A stretch of 64,000 nucleotides of DNA from a virus (taxonomy: Duplodnaviria; Caudoviricetes), in the IMG/VR virus record IMGVR_UViG_3300010352_002811, positions 1 to 64,000 of that record; one strand, given 5' to 3'. Below the pieces are notes generated by a model. The model worked only from the letters and a program-made list of their open reading frames with translations. It was not told where the DNA came from and ran no database searches. A program made the translations under genes and the position numbers. Shown piece by piece: positions 2,427 to 15,295 of the stretch. Within the stretch, counting starts at the first letter, position 1. Every line of letters begins with the position of its first letter.

Positions 2427-3368
2427 TTATTCTCCAAGTAGATAACGAACGCGGTCTAGTCTAATTTCGTCATCTTTCTTCTCAACTTCAGATTCGACGG
2501 ATGCGGATTCAACGATTTCTTCAACAGATCCGGTGAACACATCTTCATTAATGACTTCTGTTTCGGTCTTTCCGATGATGACGTCTTCTGTTTCTGAGAT
2601 GATGTCGATCACGGTGTCGATTTTAGCGGCGACTTCTTCAAAAGACTTACCTTCGAGCATGACGGTGACGCGATTTTTCTGTGATTCGGTTAGCCCTTCT
2701 GACTTGGTAGCGATGAGCAATCCAGTCTGTAGGGATTCGACCTTCTTCACGAGTTCAATCTTATCGGCCATTGATTCATTCAGCTTAGTCTTGAGGGTTT
2801 CGGCTTCGGCTTTAGCTTCAGCGACGATCTTAGTTCCTTCGGCGTCGATAGCAACGAACTTGTTTTCAAACAGATCGCGGATACCATTGACGATTGGGGC
2901 ATAAGCTTCATTGATTGCGACGGATTCGAGGAGTTCATCGGATATCTTTGAAGAGATTTCCAGATCGAGGAACTTATCGAGCTTATCTACAACATTTTCT
3001 TCAAGGGACTGAATCTTTTCGGCGTACTCTTCATCAAGCTGGGTTTTAATTTCGGCTACTTTGTCGGAGACTTCTTTAGCGACGAAACCTTCAGCCAGTT
3101 CTTGTAGGCGTTCGATTGCGGTTTCCTTGAAAAGTTCGGTCTTAGAAGCGTATGATTCTTCGAGTTCGGTGGTCTTTTCAGAAACTAGGCGATCAACTTC
3201 CTGTAGGGTGTACTGTTCGGCAAGAGTTTCGAGTTCGGCCTTGATATCAGTGACGATGAGAGCGGCGCGGTCTTTTGCCTTTTCTTCAATTAGGGAAACG
3301 ATTGACTCTTCAAGCTGGACGAAATCTTCAGCAGAGAGATGTTCCTTAAACTTTTCTAGAATATCCAT
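2427..3368 (-). CDS. gp22: Prohead core scaffold protein (gp22-like)
   Basis: Highly acidic coiled-coil protein between the protease and MCP; many L/I-x-E sites (LLES, INEA, LNES, LTES, INED). Confidence 0.88.
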   Translation of the reverse strand: MDILEKFKEHLSAEDFVQLEESIVSLIEEKAKDRAALIVTDIKAELETLAEQYTLQEVDRLVSEKTTELEESYASKTELFKETAIERLQELAEGFVAKEVSDKVAEIKTQLDEEYAEKIQSLEENVVDKLDKFLDLEISSKISDELLESVAINEAYAPIVNGIRDLFENKFVAIDAEGTKIVAEAKAEAETLKTKLNESMADKIELVKKVESLQTGLLIATKSEGLTESQKNRVTVMLEGKSFEEVAAKIDTVIDIISETEDVIIGKTETEVINEDVFTGSVEEIVESASVESEVEKKDDEIRLDRVRYLLGE

Positions 3369-3446
3369 TTGTATTAACCTCCATTTGGTTATAATTATTT
3401 AGAAAGGTGGAGAAAATAAAATTTGGAGTTTTTTATAAATAGAATG

Positions 3447-3479
3447 AAAAAAGCCAAACTCTGAGGAGAATGGCTTTTA
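3447..3479. terminator. Bidirectional-looking terminator between gp21 and gp22
   Basis: aaaaaagcca...tggctttt hairpin. Confidence 0.6.
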
Positions 3480-3500
3480 GAATGAATTTGGGTGAAAGAA

Positions 3501-4151
3501 TTAAATGCGCTTGCGAAGATTTGAAATAAACTTAGAAAGGTCTTCAGCAAGTTGTTTTGAACCGTGCTTGGAGAGGTCTTTTTCTAATTGCGACACGGCC
3601 ATTTCAACAATATCACCATGTTCATTTATGATGTAGTCTTTTGATTCAAACACGTTTTCCATTACCGCACGGTTCGCGGACGGATCTGACACCGCGTCGA
3701 TAGCTAATAGTTTATAATCTTCACCAACAACATTTCCTTCTCCTAGAGACCCGATACCTCTTGTAGAAACAGCTATTTGGCAATTAGCGTCCATCAATAC
3801 TTTTAGAATTTTTCCGGTTGGTGTATCGAGAACTTCCAACTCTCCAATTCCGCATTGGTTTCCTCTATCATAGTGAAGTTCTGTTATAATATGCGAAGCG
3901 TCTGCTAATTTAATAACCGCCTGACTTGGATGATCACAGTTTCCAAATGATCTGCGTTTCGAAATCTTTTCTTCATTATAACGTTCAATCTCTCGTTCAA
4001 GAAGTTCGTTTGGATATACTCTACCATTTCTATTTTTAGTAGAAGCTTCCATCATTATTCCGCGCATCTTGTATATTTTTGGCTTGTTTTCAGCAGCTTC
4101 GGTTAGATATTCGAACTGCCCGTGGTCTACCAATTCTGAAAAAATCTTCAT
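3501..4151 (-). CDS. gp21: Prohead protease (gp21-like)
   Basis: KNRNGRVYP, DHP, ASHII, LDTPTG, VSTRGIGS, DAVSDPSA. Confidence 0.96.
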   Translation of the reverse strand: MKIFSELVDHGQFEYLTEAAENKPKIYKMRGIMMEASTKNRNGRVYPNELLEREIERYNEEKISKRRSFGNCDHPSQAVIKLADASHIITELHYDRGNQCGIGELEVLDTPTGKILKVLMDANCQIAVSTRGIGSLGEGNVVGEDYKLLAIDAVSDPSANRAVMENVFESKDYIINEHGDIVEMAVSQLEKDLSKHGSKQLAEDLSKFISNLRKRI

Positions 4152-6005: not shown

Positions 6006-7679
6006 TCATGGTTCTGGGAATTCAGTGGTACCGCCTTCACCTGCGCCCACTGTTGCTGGAGTCTCTTCGGGGGTTTCGTTTGGTAGTTCTTGAACAGGCA
6101 CTTCTGATTTTGCCTCTTCAGAACCATCTTCATTTTCTGGGGGTTCTTCTGAAGGTTTCTCACTCTTCTTTGGAGCTTTTTCCTTCGCTTCAGTTTCAGC
6201 AAGTTCTTCTTGAATCATAGTTTGCTGTTCCTGGTATTCCTGATCTGTCATTCCCCAAATTTCGGTCATGACATATTTCCTAGACCAAAGGCCATTCTTG
6301 TTTTCCGCTGAGGCAATATCGTCCTTGAATTTTGCCATCACATCCATCTTGGCATTCAAAACTTGGAGCTTCTTCTGTTCAGCAAATGCGTTCTCTTCGA
6401 AATACTTGACCTTGAACAATGAGGATTTTGTGTAGACTTGGTTGACCTGATTCGAAAGCCTGAGTTGCTGAATCATGATGTCGATGATAATTTGAGAGAA
6501 TCGATTTCTAAGACGGGTGATGAACTTTGAGAACTTCAATTCTTCTCTAGTGATTTCGCCAGGAGCAACACCTGTAGCCACCGTGTTCAAAGTGTCTTCC
6601 CAACGAGACCTTGGAATGTTCAATGTTTTGTAAAGCTTTCTTAAGAAGTAATTGACATCATCAAGCTCTCCAAGAGACATACCAGATTGAAGAGTGTTGA
6701 CTTCTGCTCCACGACCATCAGCATCCTTCAAGAACCAATAATCCTGTGTGAGTGCTTGGAATGCTTTTGTTGAATCTACCTGACCTGTTTGATTGTTATA
6801 GATGTCGTTCTTCCGGTATGAGTGAATCAAGTTCTTCAAGAATTCCTGAGCTTTTCCTGGTTGAAGTTTTCCAGTCGAAATGTTCCAAATTCTTCTCTCA
6901 GGAGCACGAACTAAACGATAAATGATAACAGCATCTTCAAGAGATTTTAACTGATTATAAGTTCTGATAGATGCTTCAAGATATCCACGAACATCGAGCA
7001 GAGAATTTCCATATTGTCCATAATGAGAATATGCTACCTGATTCGATTCAAACACGACAGGCTTGTTCCCTTGATTCTGTCCATAATTAGTTTGAATGGG
7101 GGTGTTGGTTTGAACGAATTTCTTTATGATCTGACCTTCATACATTGGCTGAGTGATGGCAACTGGGAGCGCACGAACACGAATGATTTTGTTTCCTTCA
7201 TTGTTCAAAACCATTTCAAGATATAGTTCAGCCTCAATCAACCACCGACGAAAATATTCCCATCCATTTCTGTCAAACTTCAAAACTTCATTTACAACAT
7301 AGTCAAACGTCTTCCTGATTATCTTCTCTTCTCTTAATGGAATCTCTTTTGTTATAATTAAATCAAGATACTCGCCATTCTCATTTGATGTTATAGTTTC
7401 GTCACAAATAGTATCAATTGCATCTTTGATTTCTGGGAAGTTAGCCATCTCTCTATACATGGCAACCTTCTGCCGCTTGTCCATGAAACTTGTCTTGAAC
7501 ATCGCCATCGTGTTGTTAGTTCCAAAACCCTGATTGCCAGAATTTTCAGAATAGAATTCATAATCCTCTGTAGAAATACCAACAGCATTCTTCATGCTCT
7601 GTATTTCTTTCTCTTCCTCCGCTCTGTATTTTGAGTCTAAGAAGAATTTTGAGAATGGGTTGTAATAAGAAAAATCCAT
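6006..7679 (-). CDS. gp20: Portal vertex protein (gp20-like) with acidic C-terminal tail
   Basis: YREMA, EDAVIIYRLVRAPERRI, DYWF, YFLRKLYKTLNIPRSR, EITREELKFSKFI. Confidence 0.97.
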   Translation of the reverse strand: MDFSYYNPFSKFFLDSKYRAEEEKEIQSMKNAVGISTEDYEFYSENSGNQGFGTNNTMAMFKTSFMDKRQKVAMYREMANFPEIKDAIDTICDETITSNENGEYLDLIITKEIPLREEKIIRKTFDYVVNEVLKFDRNGWEYFRRWLIEAELYLEMVLNNEGNKIIRVRALPVAITQPMYEGQIIKKFVQTNTPIQTNYGQNQGNKPVVFESNQVAYSHYGQYGNSLLDVRGYLEASIRTYNQLKSLEDAVIIYRLVRAPERRIWNISTGKLQPGKAQEFLKNLIHSYRKNDIYNNQTGQVDSTKAFQALTQDYWFLKDADGRGAEVNTLQSGMSLGELDDVNYFLRKLYKTLNIPRSRWEDTLNTVATGVAPGEITREELKFSKFITRLRNRFSQIIIDIMIQQLRLSNQVNQVYTKSSLFKVKYFEENAFAEQKKLQVLNAKMDVMAKFKDDIASAENKNGLWSRKYVMTEIWGMTDQEYQEQQTMIQEELAETEAKEKAPKKSEKPSEEPPENEDGSEEAKSEVPVQELPNETPEETPATVGAGEGGTTEFPEP

Positions 7680-7704
7680 AATGCTCCAGTTCGTTCAATA
7701 CTAT

Positions 7705-8499
7705 TTAGTCTTCGAAAAATGAAGTGTCGCGAACTTTTCCAGTGAGATAATAAGATTCAATATCACGGTAAATGATTTTTGGGTCAACGCCTTTCTTGTA
7801 TACTTTACCAAACTTCGGATATTCAGGTGACCAAAGATCGAGCGCAACTTCAGAATTAGAATGAGAAACTGCCGACTTTATCTGAGCATATTGTTTTGTG
7901 GTTGGACGTTCCTTAATATCAAAGCCCGTCTGCTCAGGAATAAAACGGATTGTTCCAGTGTCTTTCAAAAACATCTCCATTACTTCTGATAGTGATTTAC
8001 CTTTCTTAAACTCTTCTGGAATAAACGAACCAATTATTCTATGGTCGTCTCCTCGTTTAATTGTTCCTGGAAACTTTATACAACGACCATCCGGAAGAAT
8101 ATATGCACAAGCCGAACCTATAAAATCAACAATTGAAACTCCTGACTCTTTTTCCTTCGCGATGTTTTTAATTACAATTTTCAAAAGGTCTTTGATTTTG
8201 GCAGGAGCTTCTACCTTGAATCCTATAACTTTTTTAACCGTATCAATCCAAGAATCATAAACCTTGTAGAATTTCTCATCATGGTCGCCTTGGATGAAAA
8301 TATGCTTCTTGAATAATTTCTTGATGTCTTCCGGTCCACGAACATCATAACCTTCAGAACTTAGATAATTGTTCATTTTGGTTAATTGTTCTTGGGTCAA
8401 ACGATCAACAGCAATCCAATAACCATCTTCCTTCTTTATTAGAATATCAGATGATTCCAAAAGAACGACATAATTATAACATTCTGATAACAAATCCAT
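7705..8499 (-). CDS. Hypothetical late protein with leader-like N-terminus (..YVVLLE|S)
   Basis: TATAAATA at 8521-8528; YILPDG...DHR motif. Confidence 0.6.
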   Translation of the reverse strand: MDLLSECYNYVVLLESSDILIKKEDGYWIAVDRLTQEQLTKMNNYLSSEGYDVRGPEDIKKLFKKHIFIQGDHDEKFYKVYDSWIDTVKKVIGFKVEAPAKIKDLLKIVIKNIAKEKESGVSIVDFIGSACAYILPDGRCIKFPGTIKRGDDHRIIGSFIPEEFKKGKSLSEVMEMFLKDTGTIRFIPEQTGFDIKERPTTKQYAQIKSAVSHSNSEVALDLWSPEYPKFGKVYKKGVDPKIIYRDIESYYLTGKVRDTSFFED

Positions 8500-8523
8500 A
8501 TAAATTCCTCTAATTAGAATTAT

Positions 8524-10005
8524 TTATATCTTTATCTGACTATCTGAAAATGGAAATCCTTGTTCTTCATAATATTGTTTTCTTGTTTTGAAATGTCTGT
8601 ATATGAAGTTATCAATCGTCTTATTTCCTTGACTATAACGAAGATCATCAACAACATCCCAAAGAACCATTATGTCTTTTGTCTCATGTTTTCTTAATCC
8701 TCTTCCAATCGACTGAAGCACTTTTATTTTTGATTTGTAAGAAGAGTAAAACACAATATTATGGAGTCTTGGTAAATTCCATCCAACAGCCAACGTAGCA
8801 TATGTTCCAATTATCAAAACATTTCCTTGACTCCTAGCAGCTATTCTAATATCTTCTCGTTCATCTGCTTTCACTTCACCATAAATCACATACACTTGGT
8901 GAGTTTTTCCATAATTCTCTTTCAAATATTCTTCGGTCTTTTTCAAATGGTCTATCTTATGCACCAGAATCAGAGTGTTTTCGTTGTTCTCATTTTTCTC
9001 AATTATATGGTCTAACACTTTTCTTCTTGGTTCATAACTTGTAATAAACTTCATCTCAGAATCATAATCTCTTGAACCAACACAATGAACTTTATCATAT
9101 TTCACAATCAAGTTATTAATCTTTATCTTACTCAAAACATCTCTATCAATCAATTCCTTTGTAGAGATGTTGAATGTGACTGGTCCAAGATATGATACAA
9201 CTGTTTGATAATCTGCCTTGTTCGGTGGCATTGTTCCTGTAAATCCATTTCTAATATCAGCATTCACACATTTCTTGCTGATTGATGCCATTTGATTTGA
9301 TTTCAGTCCATGTGTCTCATCAACCAAAAGAGCATCATATTGTTTGAAAAATGCTTCTTTCTTATACTGAACACTCTGCCATGTTGTAATCAAAACGTTC
9401 TTATTAAAATCTGGAGTAACCCCTGAATAAAGCTTAGTGACAAAATCATTTATAGTTGTCCATCCATATTCAATAAAGTCTGAATACATTTGGTTTACCA
9501 GAGCGACGTTAGGAACAATTAGAATTATCTTCTTGTTATGATTTATTAAGTAACGAATGATAGAATAAATGATAGCACTCTTTCCAGCACCAACAGAAGC
9601 TTCAATGATGGAACGTTTGTTGGATAGAGATTTTAGAATGGCTGTATGCTGATAATCTCTTGGATAAACTCCCGATTCAATTGAAAAAATAGAATCATAA
9701 AGATCGTAAAGTTCTTCTTCATCAATTTGGTTATAAAGGCAATGTGTGTCAAAATCAAGAGTGAGAGAAATGTCGTTGGCTTTGCAATATTTCGAAAGCT
9801 TGGGGAGAAGACCAATCGGAAGAAGATGGTCCTGTGGGTTGTAAGCAAATATTTTTCCATTCCAAAGCCCTTGTTTGAATTTTGGATGAAACATGAAATT
9901 TGCGGCCATCTCTGAGAAATAGTCTTTCAAATTCATCTCAATGCTTCTAGATGTGTGTATTTTTAAGTGAACTTCGTCTATTTTTCTTGCTATAACCTGT
10001 TCCAT
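8524..10005 (-). CDS. uvsW: UvsW-like SF2 DNA helicase
   Basis: PRDYQ, GAGKS, VDETH, GFTGT, LQSIGRGLR, WNGKI N-domain. Confidence 0.95.
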   Translation of the reverse strand: MEQVIARKIDEVHLKIHTSRSIEMNLKDYFSEMAANFMFHPKFKQGLWNGKIFAYNPQDHLLPIGLLPKLSKYCKANDISLTLDFDTHCLYNQIDEEELYDLYDSIFSIESGVYPRDYQHTAILKSLSNKRSIIEASVGAGKSAIIYSIIRYLINHNKKIILIVPNVALVNQMYSDFIEYGWTTINDFVTKLYSGVTPDFNKNVLITTWQSVQYKKEAFFKQYDALLVDETHGLKSNQMASISKKCVNADIRNGFTGTMPPNKADYQTVVSYLGPVTFNISTKELIDRDVLSKIKINNLIVKYDKVHCVGSRDYDSEMKFITSYEPRRKVLDHIIEKNENNENTLILVHKIDHLKKTEEYLKENYGKTHQVYVIYGEVKADEREDIRIAARSQGNVLIIGTYATLAVGWNLPRLHNIVFYSSYKSKIKVLQSIGRGLRKHETKDIMVLWDVVDDLRYSQGNKTIDNFIYRHFKTRKQYYEEQGFPFSDSQIKI

Positions 10006-10979: not shown

Positions 10980-11274
10980 TTTTATCATCCTTTTCCTTAG
11001 ACGGAGTTTTCTTATCATTATTTATGAATTTCGAATTTAGAATATCCAGAACTTGCATTGAAACATCAGACAGTCTTGATTGGTACGCTTCCATCATTTG
11101 TCTAAGTTTAGTTTCTATAGCAGTTTTAAGGATTTGTTCATTCGAAAGTTCTATAGAGTCATTTTGTTTCTTGATTTCTTCAGCCAGTTCGACCAAAGAA
11201 TCAATCAGAGTTTGTTTCGAGTTCAACAGACCATAATCTTTATCATTAATATATTTCTCGAATTTAGTCTCCAT
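10957..11274 (-). CDS. Hypothetical protein
   Basis: ATG 11274 with AGGAG RBS (METKFEKYIN...). Confidence 0.55.
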   Translation of the reverse strand: METKFEKYINDKDYGLLNSKQTLIDSLVELAEEIKKQNDSIELSNEQILKTAIETKLRQMMEAYQSRLSDVSMQVLDILNSKFINNDKKTPSKEKDDKNGHKGKD

Positions 11275-11674
11275 TTTCAAATCTCCTGTATTCGAATTCA
11301 AGTTTTAGAGCGAAAGCGTAATCCTTGAGGTTCGAGTTTTGTTCTAACATATACTCAATTATAATATCTCGTTGGTTAATTTCTCTTTGAATTGAACATA
11401 CTTTTGGATCGCCATTCATCTTTATTTTCATTTCGTTAGCATTATCATAAAGGTTTGAGTGTTTCTTAATATCATCTAGAACATTTGATTTAATTTCGTC
11501 AAGTTTTGTAATGAGTTCTTTACGGTATGATGATTCTACTGATATTTGGTTAATCAGGATACTTCTGTATTTGTTGATTTTTGTATATTTGTCTTTTGAA
11601 GGATCATCGAAGAACTTAGTCATCGTTGCTTTCAGATTATCAAATTGGTCATACGTCATGTGGGTGTTTGTCAT
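11264..11674 (-). CDS. uvsY: UvsY-like recombination mediator
   Basis: 136 aa, helical, C-terminal EYRRFENG (T4 UvsY ends in a similar xRxFEAG); near uvsW. Confidence 0.7.
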   Translation of the reverse strand: MTNTHMTYDQFDNLKATMTKFFDDPSKDKYTKINKYRSILINQISVESSYRKELITKLDEIKSNVLDDIKKHSNLYDNANEMKIKMNGDPKVCSIQREINQRDIIIEYMLEQNSNLKDYAFALKLEFEYRRFENGD

Positions 11675-11831
11675 GTAGGTATTTAGACAGGTAAGAAATT
11701 GATGATGAGGTTTTGTGACCGGAAGACAATGAAGAAATATGGCCGTAATGAATTGTTTGAATAGGTTCTTGGCTGGATTAATGATTGTCTGACCATTGTT
11801 ATGTTTACATGATTAATTCTTCCGGAGGTCA

Positions 11832-11960
11832 GTTTGATGAGCGAAGCGAAATCAAACAGCGACGAACGAAGTGAGGAGCTTTAGAAGAAATGTTAATATA
11901 AAATAAAATTAACATTCGCTTCGCTCATTACTCAATCGTCGCTATCGCTCCTCATTCGTA
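11832..11960. repeat. Cluster of inverted repeats and GNA mini-hairpins around an AT-rich palindrome (candidate origin element)
   Basis: atgagcgaagcgaa / ttcgcttcgctcat; agcgacga / tcgtcgct; acgaagtgaggagc / gctcctcattcgt; aatgttaat...attaacatt. Confidence 0.75.
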
Positions 11961-12044
11961 AAAGACTATATGTTATATTGACCATGATTAAGACAAGATG
12001 ATGTTTAGACAATATTTAATTTATGTTTCGATAATTTTAATTTC

Positions 12045-12394
12045 ACTGCCTCCCCAAACCCCTCCAGACAAAACCCGTCAGTGTGGTTTGAGAAAAGCCA
12101 TCGAACTCAGTTCAACGTCCTCCGCAATGTCATACAAACCTTTGCTGTATCAATCAGTTCTTCGGTCGGCTACATTAATATCGCCTGACATTACCGTCGT
12201 GTTTGCTTTTGTATAGGACATTTCTGCCGATTTGACACTCCTAGCCATTTAGACTCCATGTCGAATCACTACCAAACATTCATTCACCTTGTTTCTTCAT
12301 CATGTCTCTCAATGAAGGTTCTGAGAATATATCTTTTGAGGGATAGTCTGGACCGCCTAAGCGAACACAACTCCGAAAGGATTTTAACCCCTTC
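12045..12394 (-). ncRNA. Candidate ~350-nt structured non-coding RNA (unassigned)
   Basis: TATAAATA at 12400-12407 plus a second promoter at 12481-12498; 5' hairpin, long-range helices, GAAA tetraloop, G-rich 3' tract; no credible ORF. Confidence 0.6.
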
Positions 12395-12535
12395 AACTTT
12401 ATTTATATCCTCGTTATTCTTCCAAGTCAAGCTGCCTTCGAAAATTTGTTTAGAAGGGCTTGTTGTGCTGGTTCTACAGGATTTTAGCTTGGAGAAATCT
12501 TGCTAAATATTCCTGAAGATAGGATAGACAAACCT

Positions 12536-12552
12536 TTCTTCCAAGCTACAAT
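12536..12552 (+). promoter_or_regulatory. Pre-replicative promoter with TTCTTCCA(A/T)GN box abutting the -10 (representative copy)
   Basis: Nine copies: 962(-), 12481(-), 12536, 15303, 18776, 25865, 27474, 43915, 63319. Each is an 11-nt box immediately followed by TANNAT or TATACT. Confidence 0.8.
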
Positions 12553-12573
12553 TATTTAGAAAGGAGTGCTGAC

Positions 12574-13074
12574 ATGGACAGAACCGCATACTACCTAATA
12601 CAGAACACTAATGGGGTAGAGACAATCAATTTTCAGAGAATGTTTGATAATTGTTGTATTGGTAAGAACACTGAGGCACTTCTGAATAAATTGTGGAATT
12701 ACGTGAATTTCTATGACGATGTGACTGAAGAACAGGAATTGAAGTTTTTAGAAATGCTGAAAAGTTTTGTCAATGTTAAGTTGGACAAATACACTCTTTT
12801 CAAAAACAAAATTGTCGACCGTCTTGCTTTTGAGTACGCGGTTGAAGTTTTGGAAGACACGAAGAAACATGAAAAGACTGAAACTGTCACCTGGATCGAT
12901 CATGCCGGGTTCTTCTATTTTGTTTTTGGAATTGAAGAAGAGAAATTGAACAAACTGATTCGAAACAAGATTTTTAGGATCGATTCCAGATTTTTTGAGA
13001 GAACGGGAATTGAAGCTCCTGGGGTTTTTCGGAGAGTAATGATTAAAGTTAGAAAGGCGTTTGATGTTCGTTAA
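12574..13074 (+). CDS. Hypothetical protein, first gene of the replication arm
   Basis: AAGGAG RBS, promoter at 12525-12552. Confidence 0.7.
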   Translation: MDRTAYYLIQNTNGVETINFQRMFDNCCIGKNTEALLNKLWNYVNFYDDVTEEQELKFLEMLKSFVNVKLDKYTLFKNKIVDRLAFEYAVEVLEDTKKHEKTETVTWIDHAGFFYFVFGIEEEKLNKLIRNKIFRIDSRFFERTGIEAPGVFRRVMIKVRKAFDVR

Positions 13075-15295
13075 ATTCAACAACCTTAAGTTCAAAAATA
13101 TTTTAAGTTACGGGAATAATGAAAATGTTGTGAACTTTGAACCTGGGATGACTTTGATTTCTGGGAAAAATGGAAACGGAAAATGTGTACGTCGGAATAC
13201 TGTAATTAAGATTAAAGCAACTAGGCAAGATACTTTATTGAAATGGTATTCGTACACTTTTAATAAGAATAGTTATTTTTCATGCAAGTCGATCAACGAA
13301 GAGTTTGTGACAACTGTAGGAGATGTTTCTGACTTTTACAGAATTTATCCAGCATGTATTGGTCATTTTGAAGTTTCAACTCGTTTTGGATACAAGACGA
13401 TTGAATTTGCTTGTATCACTTCATTTAATTCAGACATCATTCGAATTGAAACAGAGAACAGATATATTGAAACTTCTCCAGACCATCTTTTGTTTGTTTC
13501 CGGTAAGTGGATTCAAACAAAGTTTCTGAAAAAAGGAGACACGCTTGAGACTGAAGCTGGATTGGAGAAGATAAAGAAAACATCAAGATTGGATTTCGTA
13601 GAAGATTTATATGACCTCCAAGTTCAAGATGTTCATGAGTTTTTTGCGAATGGCGTGGTTTCTCATAACTCCACCATGATCGATGCTTTGTCATTTTGTT
13701 TGTATGGAAAGCCTTATAGGAAAATTAGAATAAATGATTTGATTAACCGCAGAAATAGGAAGAAACTTTATACAGAATGTAACTTTACTATTGGTGATGA
13801 TGAATACAAGATTGTTAGAACTCTTCAACCAAACAGTATAGAAATGTGGAAGAATGGGGTTGAGACTGAAAAACTATCTTCTAAGAAGTTGAATCAAGAA
13901 GAGATTAATAAAATCATTGGTCTTGATTATAGCCTGTTTCGAAATATTATAGCTCTTTCAATCAATTACAACAAAGCATTCTTGGCACTTGAAATTGCTG
14001 AGAAGAGAGACATCATCGAATCTATCTTCAATATCAAAATTTTCGCAGAGATGTTGAAGAAGTTGAAGACGAACAATTCGAATTTGAAAGTTCAGAATCA
14101 GGTCAACATTTCTCAAATTTCGATCCTTGAAACCACCATCAAGACATTAGCAAATCAGATTAAGAATGTTGAGAAAACCAAGTCAACATTCGATTCCGAC
14201 AAGGCTGAAAGAATCAAAGAACTGAATTTGGAATTTTCTCAGAAGCAAGAACATTATAAGCAGTTACAAAAAGAGAATAAGGAATTAGCTAAGAAGATTG
14301 CTGAGATTGAATCATTGCTAGACACGACTGATTTCTCTCATGAAGCTTCTGAATTGAATACTTTGATTAAACTGAGTGAAAAACAGTTCAATGACAATCT
14401 AAGCAAAATTGAATTGTTTGATAATAATGCGATTTGTCCTGATTGTGGCTCTGTGCTCGATCATAAACATAAGATACAAGAAATCACTCGGCTGAATTCT
14501 GAAAATGATAAACTGAAGAATGATGTTTCAAATGCTAAGAATAATAAGAGTGAATTGGCAAACAGATACAGAATTAATGAAGATAGAAAATCAGAAATTA
14601 CAAAGTATAAGAATAAGATAACAACGAATAATAATGAGATTGAGCATATTAAGAGAACTGCTGTTAGAATTAATTCAGACATCAAAAAGGAGAATGAAAG
14701 AATATTTGATTTTGATGATGTTCAATTAAAGTCCGATTATGAGTCTAAGAAGAATGATTATACAGCAGTTCATTCGGAATATGTTAACATTGCGGATGAT
14801 ATTAAGTATAATGATTTCGCGTTGAATATTCTGTCTGACCAGGGAATCAAGGCGTTCTTCTTCAAGCGTTTAGTCCCTATTCTGAATCAAAAAATAAATG
14901 GATACCTTGATATATTTGAGCTTCCACTTCAGATAAATTTTAATGATATGATGGAAGAAAATATTACAATGATTGGAAGCAAGGAAAACATTTCATACAT
15001 GTCATTCTCAGAAGGCGAAAAAAAGAGAATTGATATTGCGATTATGCTTAGCTTCATTGATACAACCAAAGTGATTTCTAACTGGAACTGTAACTTGCTT
15101 GCGTTTGATGAGATTCTTGATTCTTCCACGGATTCTGATGGGCTGGACAAGATTATGGGAGCAGTGAAGCAGATGACGATAGAACAAACAAATCTGTGCT
15201 GCTATATAATAAGTCATAGAGATAATGACCATGAGAATTATACACGGAAAATCATTGTTAAGAAGGTCGGTGGTTTTTCATCAATCAATGCTTAA
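13064..15295 (+). CDS. gp46: SbcC/Rad50-like recombination endonuclease subunit (gp46) with intein
   Basis: FKNILSYGN, Walker A GKNGNGK/ST split by the intein, CPDC zinc hook, SFSEGEKKRID, FDE, IISH. Confidence 0.95.
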   Translation: MFVKFNNLKFKNILSYGNNENVVNFEPGMTLISGKNGNGKCVRRNTVIKIKATRQDTLLKWYSYTFNKNSYFSCKSINEEFVTTVGDVSDFYRIYPACIGHFEVSTRFGYKTIEFACITSFNSDIIRIETENRYIETSPDHLLFVSGKWIQTKFLKKGDTLETEAGLEKIKKTSRLDFVEDLYDLQVQDVHEFFANGVVSHNSTMIDALSFCLYGKPYRKIRINDLINRRNRKKLYTECNFTIGDDEYKIVRTLQPNSIEMWKNGVETEKLSSKKLNQEEINKIIGLDYSLFRNIIALSINYNKAFLALEIAEKRDIIESIFNIKIFAEMLKKLKTNNSNLKVQNQVNISQISILETTIKTLANQIKNVEKTKSTFDSDKAERIKELNLEFSQKQEHYKQLQKENKELAKKIAEIESLLDTTDFSHEASELNTLIKLSEKQFNDNLSKIELFDNNAICPDCGSVLDHKHKIQEITRLNSENDKLKNDVSNAKNNKSELANRYRINEDRKSEITKYKNKITTNNNEIEHIKRTAVRINSDIKKENERIFDFDDVQLKSDYESKKNDYTAVHSEYVNIADDIKYNDFALNILSDQGIKAFFFKRLVPILNQKINGYLDIFELPLQINFNDMMEENITMIGSKENISYMSFSEGEKKRIDIAIMLSFIDTTKVISNWNCNLLAFDEILDSSTDSDGLDKIMGAVKQMTIEQTNLCCYIISHRDNDHENYTRKIIVKKVGGFSSINA
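13184..13669 (+). mobile_element. Mini-intein (162 aa) in gp46 Walker A
   Basis: GK|CVRRNT...TSPDH...YDLQV...NGVVSHN|ST. Confidence 0.93.

Follow-up and report, generated by a model that had tools for sequence, protein, structure and literature searches.

A predicted folded non-coding RNA of about 350 nt upstream of uvsY in uncultured T4-like phages

The stretch of DNA analyzed here (the window) covers the first 64 kb of a virus record 94,443 bp long, which IMG/VR classes as a provirus and which CheckV estimates to be ~42% complete. Its source is a distant T4-like phage, uncultured and from wastewater. The gp46 protein is 28 to 30% identical to cyanophage and T4 gp46, both uvsW and uvsY-like genes are encoded by the record, and the same DNA turns up again in runs from activated sludge, wastewater, sediment, and freshwater. 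On the minus strand, positions 11264 to 11674 hold the uvsY-like gene, assigned through PHROG 231 (E = 4e-4), with a weak match to Pfam UvsY. A gap of ~900 nt separates it from orf166 (12574 to 13074, plus strand; 166 aa), which overlaps the gp46 start and forms with gp46 a divergent operon upstream. The initial annotation had placed a structured RNA upstream of uvsY, and the gene downstream is indeed uvsY-like. No Pfam family includes orf166, and its AF2 model (pLDDT 77) has no Foldseek match in PDB or BFVD; the gene is kept beside the RNA promoter in six lineages and is absent in L029, a locus considered separately below.

The gap between uvsY and orf166 contains no tRNA and, as had been claimed for the DNA behind the promoters, no ORF in any frame, even with any single stop codon reassigned. 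Codon periodicity was not found in the interval of the RNA. A coding, pseudogene, or recoded-stop reading is ruled out, as reassigning any single stop leaves every frame closed, and a 13-codon GTG frame after the last hairpin (P9) was dropped as not conserved. Short words near gene starts were also recorded in this region (window positions 11675 to 11690, 10018, and 10523). A TAAATA word ends 8 nt 5′ of the uvsY start, without a Shine-Dalgarno (SD)-like word, and does likewise in L020 and L026; TATAAATA precedes the starts of uvsW and orf141 by 5 and 23 nt, respectively. These words near uvsY, uvsW, and orf141 may be late promoters, possibly giving near-leaderless mRNAs.

Relatives of the locus were collected via exact-protein look-ups with uvsY and orf166 homologues together with pattern scans. 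The loci comprise a 96%-identical strain (L024), L020 to L023 (uvsY 52% identical), L026 to L028, L032, L039/L040/L046, L041, L045, and L029 to L031. A pattern common to L026 recovered L032, and a pattern of the L026 group recovered L045 and L046; IMG/VR protein-pattern scans with uvsY and orf166 returned nothing, and exact-pattern scans with the G tract and with blocks specific to the window and L020 returned chance matches or nothing. Gene order in the relatives is gp47-gp46-orf166, gap, uvsY, small acidic ORFs, and uvsW, and the RNA is always flanked by the orf166-gp46 operon on one side and the uvsY-uvsW operon on the other. At least seven lineages conserve it (the window, L020, L026, L032, L039, L041, and L045), all uncultured T4-like phages of sludge, wastewater, and sediment. 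Flanking proteins of the window and L020 are 48 to 53% identical, and the gap retains perfect blocks of 18 to 25 nt over the RNA interval. L032 keeps the RNA though the uvsY gene is missing downstream: tblastn found no uvsY homologue there, and the RNA, the motif cluster described below, orf114, orf146, and uvsW are retained. Two unrelated ORFs (106 and 273 aa) without a Pfam family fill the uvsY position in that locus (2494 to 3628). More distant uvsY relatives (L033 to L037) have no gap upstream of uvsY, and the RNA element thus belongs to a subclade.

Two tandem promoters without an ORF behind them had been proposed on the minus strand, and only the inner one withstands comparison. Its −10 region, at 12400 to 12407, is conserved in position; the box promoter at 12481 to 12498 is not conserved in the 52%-identical lineage. 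The −10 hexamer TATAAA (12407 to 12402) lies within TATAAATA (12407 to 12400), which is also a T4-type late-promoter word, and is preceded by a −35 hexamer, TTGACT, at 12425 to 12430. All seven lineages align in a −35-like hexamer, a 17-nt spacer, the −10, and then 7 nt to the first hairpin of the RNA (P1). At this promoter none of the seven carries a MotA-box word; each has a sigma-70 −35 (TTGACT and similar) instead. From the seven aligned promoters we infer a start at ~12394 to 12397, host sigma-70 polymerase, and early expression. Late transcription is also possible, given that the −10 is at the same time a TATAAATA word and that the same word stands before uvsW and orf141. In five relatives the TATAAATA word is found ~50 nt farther upstream.

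On the minus strand, oriented like uvsY, the predicted RNA of ~350 nt (12394 to about 12045) folds into about nine helices (P1 to P9) around conserved junctions; G+C is enriched in its first 350 nt, at 40 to 42%. The 5′-terminal hairpin P1 (GAAGGGG/TTAAAA/TCCTTTC; 12375 to 12394) has double changes in six of its eight pairs. It is followed by a 5′ domain (12199 to 12374) in which GGAGUUG and a long-range, covarying helix, P2 (12368-12359 with 12208-12199), enclose P3 to P6. P3 (12351-12346 with 12277-12272) also covaries, its partner strand changing in step in four lineages; the domain also holds a conserved junction, at 12343-12318 and 12295-12278. P4, a hairpin (12317-12295), is built from six different stems of 6 to 9 bp in seven lineages around a conserved loop; P5/P5a (12267-12229) and the P6 hairpin GGCA-GAAA-TGTC (12228-12217) complete the domain. 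In the central domain (12124 to 12198), GACGG is followed by P7 (12194-12186 with 12132-12124), which encloses P7a, P7b, and a conserved loop, GAAGAAC. Every lineage ends with a P8 hairpin and a long P9 hairpin. P8 (12099 to 12117) shows compensated changes inside the L026 group, such as U:A in place of A:U in L045, and the terminal hairpin P9 (12049 to 12096) is redesigned between lineages.

The sequence features listed in the initial annotation, namely TATAAATA, P1, the GGCA-GAAA-TGTC hairpin, and a G-rich tract (GGAGGGGTTTGGGGAGG) at 12065 to 12049, are all present where it placed them. Its two long-range pairings fared differently. That of 12186-12194 with 12124-12132 is P7, which covaries, with double changes in five of nine pairs. 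The other, 12346-12352 with 12063-12069, is complementary in the window but competes with P3, whose 5′ strand it uses, and in the L026 group no such pairing is retained at the corresponding site; the covarying P3 is preferred and this pairing rejected.

Nor is the G tract a free 3′ tail. It is the 3′ strand of P9, with AT-rich DNA after it: GGUUUGGGGAGG (12060-12049) makes up the purine strand of the stem, its pyrimidine partner is at 12096-12085, and a tip hairpin lies between them (12079-12067). The partner strand changes in step between lineages, and the stem is AAACC:GGUUU in the window versus UACCUC:GAGGUA in L029. A free G tract that forms a hybrid or quadruplex (G4) in the nascent RNA and ends transcription, as in the primer-forming element of mitochondrial CSBII, is therefore not what is found here, as the tract is paired in P9; moreover, it has only two runs of four G, and so only a two-layer quadruplex would be possible. 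Within each group of lineages the purine strand of P9 is invariant while its partner drifts through wobble pairs, a pattern that suggests a second, sequence-specific role for the purine strand.

Conservation in the gap could in principle come from DNA-level signals (protein-binding sites or cruciforms) or from a decayed gene, with no RNA at all. Single-sequence folding would allow this, as neither strand has a significant energy: the MFE gives z-scores of −0.92 (minus strand, with 17 of 100 shuffles folding equally well) and −0.97 (plus strand), so that energy carries no weight here. The comparative data point the other way. Model R1, a hand-refined RNAalifold structure of the window, L024, and L020 (292 positions and 65 pairs, from two lineages), finds L026, L032, L039, L041, and L045 at full length with E = 1e-13 to 1e-17, and one copy in each record searched. 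Eight distinct sequences entered a covariance-model alignment in which 94% of the cells are paired, and compensatory double changes occur at 35 of 65 pairs versus 5 to 11 when the partner is slid by 1 to 3 columns; none of 500 shuffles attains the observed value on any of five covariation measures. Because such an alignment leans towards the model, a separate MAFFT and RNAalifold run, not fitted to the model structure, was added on seven full-length sequences. In this run 44 of 99 pairs are compensated, and it recovered P1 to P6 (including P5a), an extra helix AUCC/GGAU, P7a to P7c, P8, and P9. The covariation that the initial annotation proposed looking for among uvsY-upstream homologues is thus strong, on a basis of about seven lineages in three groups. 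MAFFT misaligns helices of the 3′ domain across groups, and P8 and P9 therefore rest on per-lineage folds and the RNAalifold run.

The compensatory changes pass through G-U intermediates, with pairing only in the minus-strand reading, and the alifold energy is −78 kcal/mol on the minus versus −47 kcal/mol on the plus strand; on these two grounds the RNA is assigned to the minus strand. Between the window and the 96%-identical strain L024, it differs at 2 of 354 bases, and one of the two substitutions leaves P7 with C-G in place of U.G. The flanking non-coding DNA diverges by 5.5 to 7.6% (upstream, 7 of 99; spacer, 5 of 91; repeat cluster, 8 of 121; uvsY-proximal, 12 of 158), such that the RNA diverges roughly tenfold more slowly. 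With the long-range helices P2 and P7 covarying, neither a reading frame nor codon periodicity in the interval, and a conserved promoter placed exactly at P1, an explanation by DNA signals or gene decay is very improbable. The pattern is clearly more than chance by comparative evidence, not by energy, and the comparison establishes, at the level of sequence, that the gap upstream of uvsY holds a gene for a folded non-coding RNA of ~350 nt.

The RNA family is absent from Rfam 15. A search of the whole window at gathering thresholds gave no match, and at E ≤ 10 the interval 11600 to 12700 gave four chance-level snoRNA matches (13 to 16 bits, E = 0.5 to 9), none within the RNA. A blastn search against 50,697 phage records also returned no match, and no paper describing the RNA was found in the literature. 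The proposal of a new large phage non-coding RNA class, which a match to a known family would have overturned, is borne out by this result together with the covariation in seven lineages, the conserved promoter, and the ~tenfold slower divergence. One comparison is with GOLLD and ROOL, large “ornate” phage-associated RNAs whose function is not known (PMC12286853). Like them, the present RNA is a large, multi-helix, strongly covarying non-coding RNA of phages, but it is 350 nt long versus 500 to 800 nt, has no tRNA neighbourhood and no covariance-model match, and holds a fixed position in the replication-recombination module.

On the RNA strand, P9 is followed by an AT-rich, poorly conserved spacer (11954 to 12048, minus strand). 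No intrinsic terminator was found in a scan after P9, where CAGUGAAAUUAAAA comes next without a U run, and read-through towards uvsY is accordingly possible. The spacer is among the 0.6 to 1.3% least stable 50- to 80-bp windows of the 94-kb record, although not the least stable. In the L026 group a hairpin with a run of 6 to 7 A after it stands ~40 to 70 nt beyond P9 on the RNA strand (4750 to 4800 in L026 and 2215 to 2265 in L032); this hairpin is no terminator in either direction. Beyond the spacer, positions 11833 to 11953 hold a cluster of GAGCGAAGCGA-type motifs (GCGNAGC mini-hairpins) in both orientations around an AT-rich centre. The motifs, in non-nested order, are confined to this locus within the 94-kb record, and every related locus, L029 included, has CGAAG/CTTCG clusters. 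GCGNAGC is a single-stranded DNA (ssDNA) mini-hairpin known at priming sites of ssDNA (G4-type) phages (PMC13037366).

Two variants of the cluster were noted. In strain L024 one GCGAAGC has become GCGGAGC, which is still GCGNAGC. In L045 a 422-aa TnpB (OrfB_IS605, Cas12f1-like TNB, and HTH_OrfB_IS605 domains; 7678 to 8946) is inserted inside the cluster, between the RNA and uvsY, with ACGAACAATC repeated at both borders. The IS605 family targets single-stranded DNA.

Contigs of two wastewater metatranscriptomes and of two metagenomes labelled “RNA-Seq” cover the RNA and flanking genes. Among these RNA-library contigs, X16 spans 11868 to 12388 and X18 spans 12066 to 12403; they give no strand, ends, or level, and X16 runs ~180 nt past P9.

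The arrangement of promoter, folded RNA, AT-rich spacer, and GCGNAGC cluster might form a replication origin at the place of T4 oriF, or ori(uvsY), with the RNA as its transcript. The transcript would enter the spacer and form a persistent RNA-DNA hybrid, a processed 3′ end would prime the leading strand, and the 5′ body would set the boundary of the hybrid or recruit replication proteins, much as primer formation by ColE1 RNA II depends on its fold. In T4, oriE, oriF, and oriG lie at transcription-strand switches, and oriF, at the uvsY promoter, needs only a promoter and an adjacent unwinding element, ~100 bp in all (PMC3016281). Like oriF, the present locus has a promoter upstream of uvsY whose untranslated transcript would be aimed at AT-rich DNA; it also lies at a strand switch, and uvsW follows downstream in the same operon order. 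The base skew changes sign at the locus, and the skew check proposed in the initial annotation places the cumulative GC-skew minimum of the 94-kb record at 10 to 12 kb, although this minimum coincides with the strand switch and the record represents ~42% of the genome. An origin would better account for the constant position of the RNA beside the AT-rich spacer and the hairpin-motif cluster than a discrete RNA acting through its fold. The promoter points at a spacer among the least stable windows without a terminator in between; the cluster, of a motif with precedent at phage priming sites, is unique in the genome and present in all lineages, even in L029, whose RNA body is too diverged to be detected; and the L045 insertion in the cluster comes from a family that targets ssDNA. 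The X16 contig, which continues through P9 to 11868, weakly favors the same reading.

The differences from oriF are also substantial. T4 oriF has its unwinding element immediately after a MotA-dependent middle promoter and requires no RNA fold; in the window, 350 nt of covarying structure separate a sigma-70-type promoter from the AT-rich DNA. No A+T-rich unwinding element lies within ~100 bp of the promoter, AT-rich DNA beginning only after 12048, some 350 nt after the start site, and the spacer is not the easiest site of the record to melt. Since T4 R-loop origins need ~100 bp and no specific sequence, a selected fold of 350 nt is left unexplained, and a G tract paired in P9 is not free to invade DNA. 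The missing MotA box counts against the origin less than it might, as T4 oriE uses an early promoter (PMC3016281) and the lack of the box is thus compatible with an origin. By blastn against the 50,697 phage records, there is no sequence similarity to T4 oriF.

ColE1 RNA II offers another point of comparison. It is a folded, untranslated plasmid primer precursor of a few hundred nt with a constitutive promoter and a G-rich element, and its fold is required for primer formation. The present RNA is similar as a folded untranslated RNA with a G-rich element upstream of a putative origin; it differs in that no plasmid RNA of Rfam matches it, no RNA I-like antisense is evident, and the G tract is paired. 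On balance, we consider a role as origin transcript possible but unlikely, and place it second.

With read-through possible, the RNA could instead be the 5′ part of a long uvsY-uvsW transcript and control the operon in cis, as the gp32 leader pseudoknot does, by binding a protein or ligand or through processing or stability. Its orientation matches that of the downstream genes in all lineages, no terminator follows P9, and SD-like GGAGG words are sequestered in P9. Those words are absent from P9 in the L026 group, however, and at least 370 nt separate the end of the RNA from the uvsY start, with no expression platform or conserved start codon next to P9. In three lineages a TAAATA word lies no more than 8 nt from the uvsY start, and TATAAATA words precede uvsW and orf141, which suggests that these genes have promoters of their own. 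L032 retains the RNA where other genes replace uvsY. Such a leader is improbable, and we rank it third, ahead of a DNA-only signal in fourth place and of other readings that make up the remainder.

The reading that we place first, tentatively and at less than even confidence, is a discrete, stable RNA that acts through its fold with a putative partner. Host RNA polymerase would start at ~12394 to 12397 from the sigma-70-type promoter, so that the RNA would be made from the first minutes of infection, and the TATAAATA word possibly drives late transcription as well. The RNA would accumulate as a discrete molecule and work via its fold. Terminal hairpins are the usual protection against RNase E and 3′ exonucleases, and the hairpin at +1 (P1) and the long end hairpin (P9) may serve in this way. 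A surface for the partner could be formed by the junction bases and the P9 purine strand, both of them invariant; the likeliest candidates are a phage protein from the replication-recombination module and a host factor. Neither Pfam, the AF2 model, nor Foldseek gave support for orf166 in this role, and it has no recognisable fold. End hairpins, invariant junctions, and tenfold slower divergence are what is expected of a stable, shape-dependent RNA.

Few large RNAs combine many covarying helices with invariant junctions, and those that do have repeatedly proved to be ribozymes, cores of ribonucleoproteins (RNPs), or regulators. The present one is phage encoded, has a host-type promoter, and sits in the replication-recombination module of a poorly known, large T4-like clade. 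A bolder proposal, which we hold to be doubtful, is that a new type of phage replication origin is organised around it, or that it serves the recombination-replication machinery as a new ribozyme or RNP core; in the origin version, a large, precisely folded origin RNA, resembling ColE1 RNA II in function but unrelated to it and belonging to a T4-like virus, the AT-rich spacer, and GCGNAGC clusters on both strands would together start DNA synthesis. The rules of R-loop formation are listed among open questions (PMC3016281), and a conserved folded RNA aimed at an origin-like element would make the question of how replication starts in T4 relatives beyond T4 a testable one. If the RNA acts in trans, it would represent a new class of viral RNA effector.

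The divergent locus set aside above shares part of this architecture. Model R1 did not detect L029 or L030 (E > 0.01 with filters off), but by eye three features of the family can be recognised in them, namely the promoter, P1 with GGGAGUU, and the purine strand of P9; they were treated as a diverged or partly homologous variant and excluded from the counts.

A separate observation concerns the gene on the other side of the strand switch. In the window, gp46 (13061 to 15295, plus strand) carries an insert of ~159 aa at 13184 to 13660 that splits the Walker A motif, in the arrangement GKNGNGK / C...VVSHN / STMIDAL, a mini-intein layout. The insert is present in L020 (739 aa), and residues 42 to 200 are missing from gp46 of L026, L029, and L039 (580 to 581 aa).
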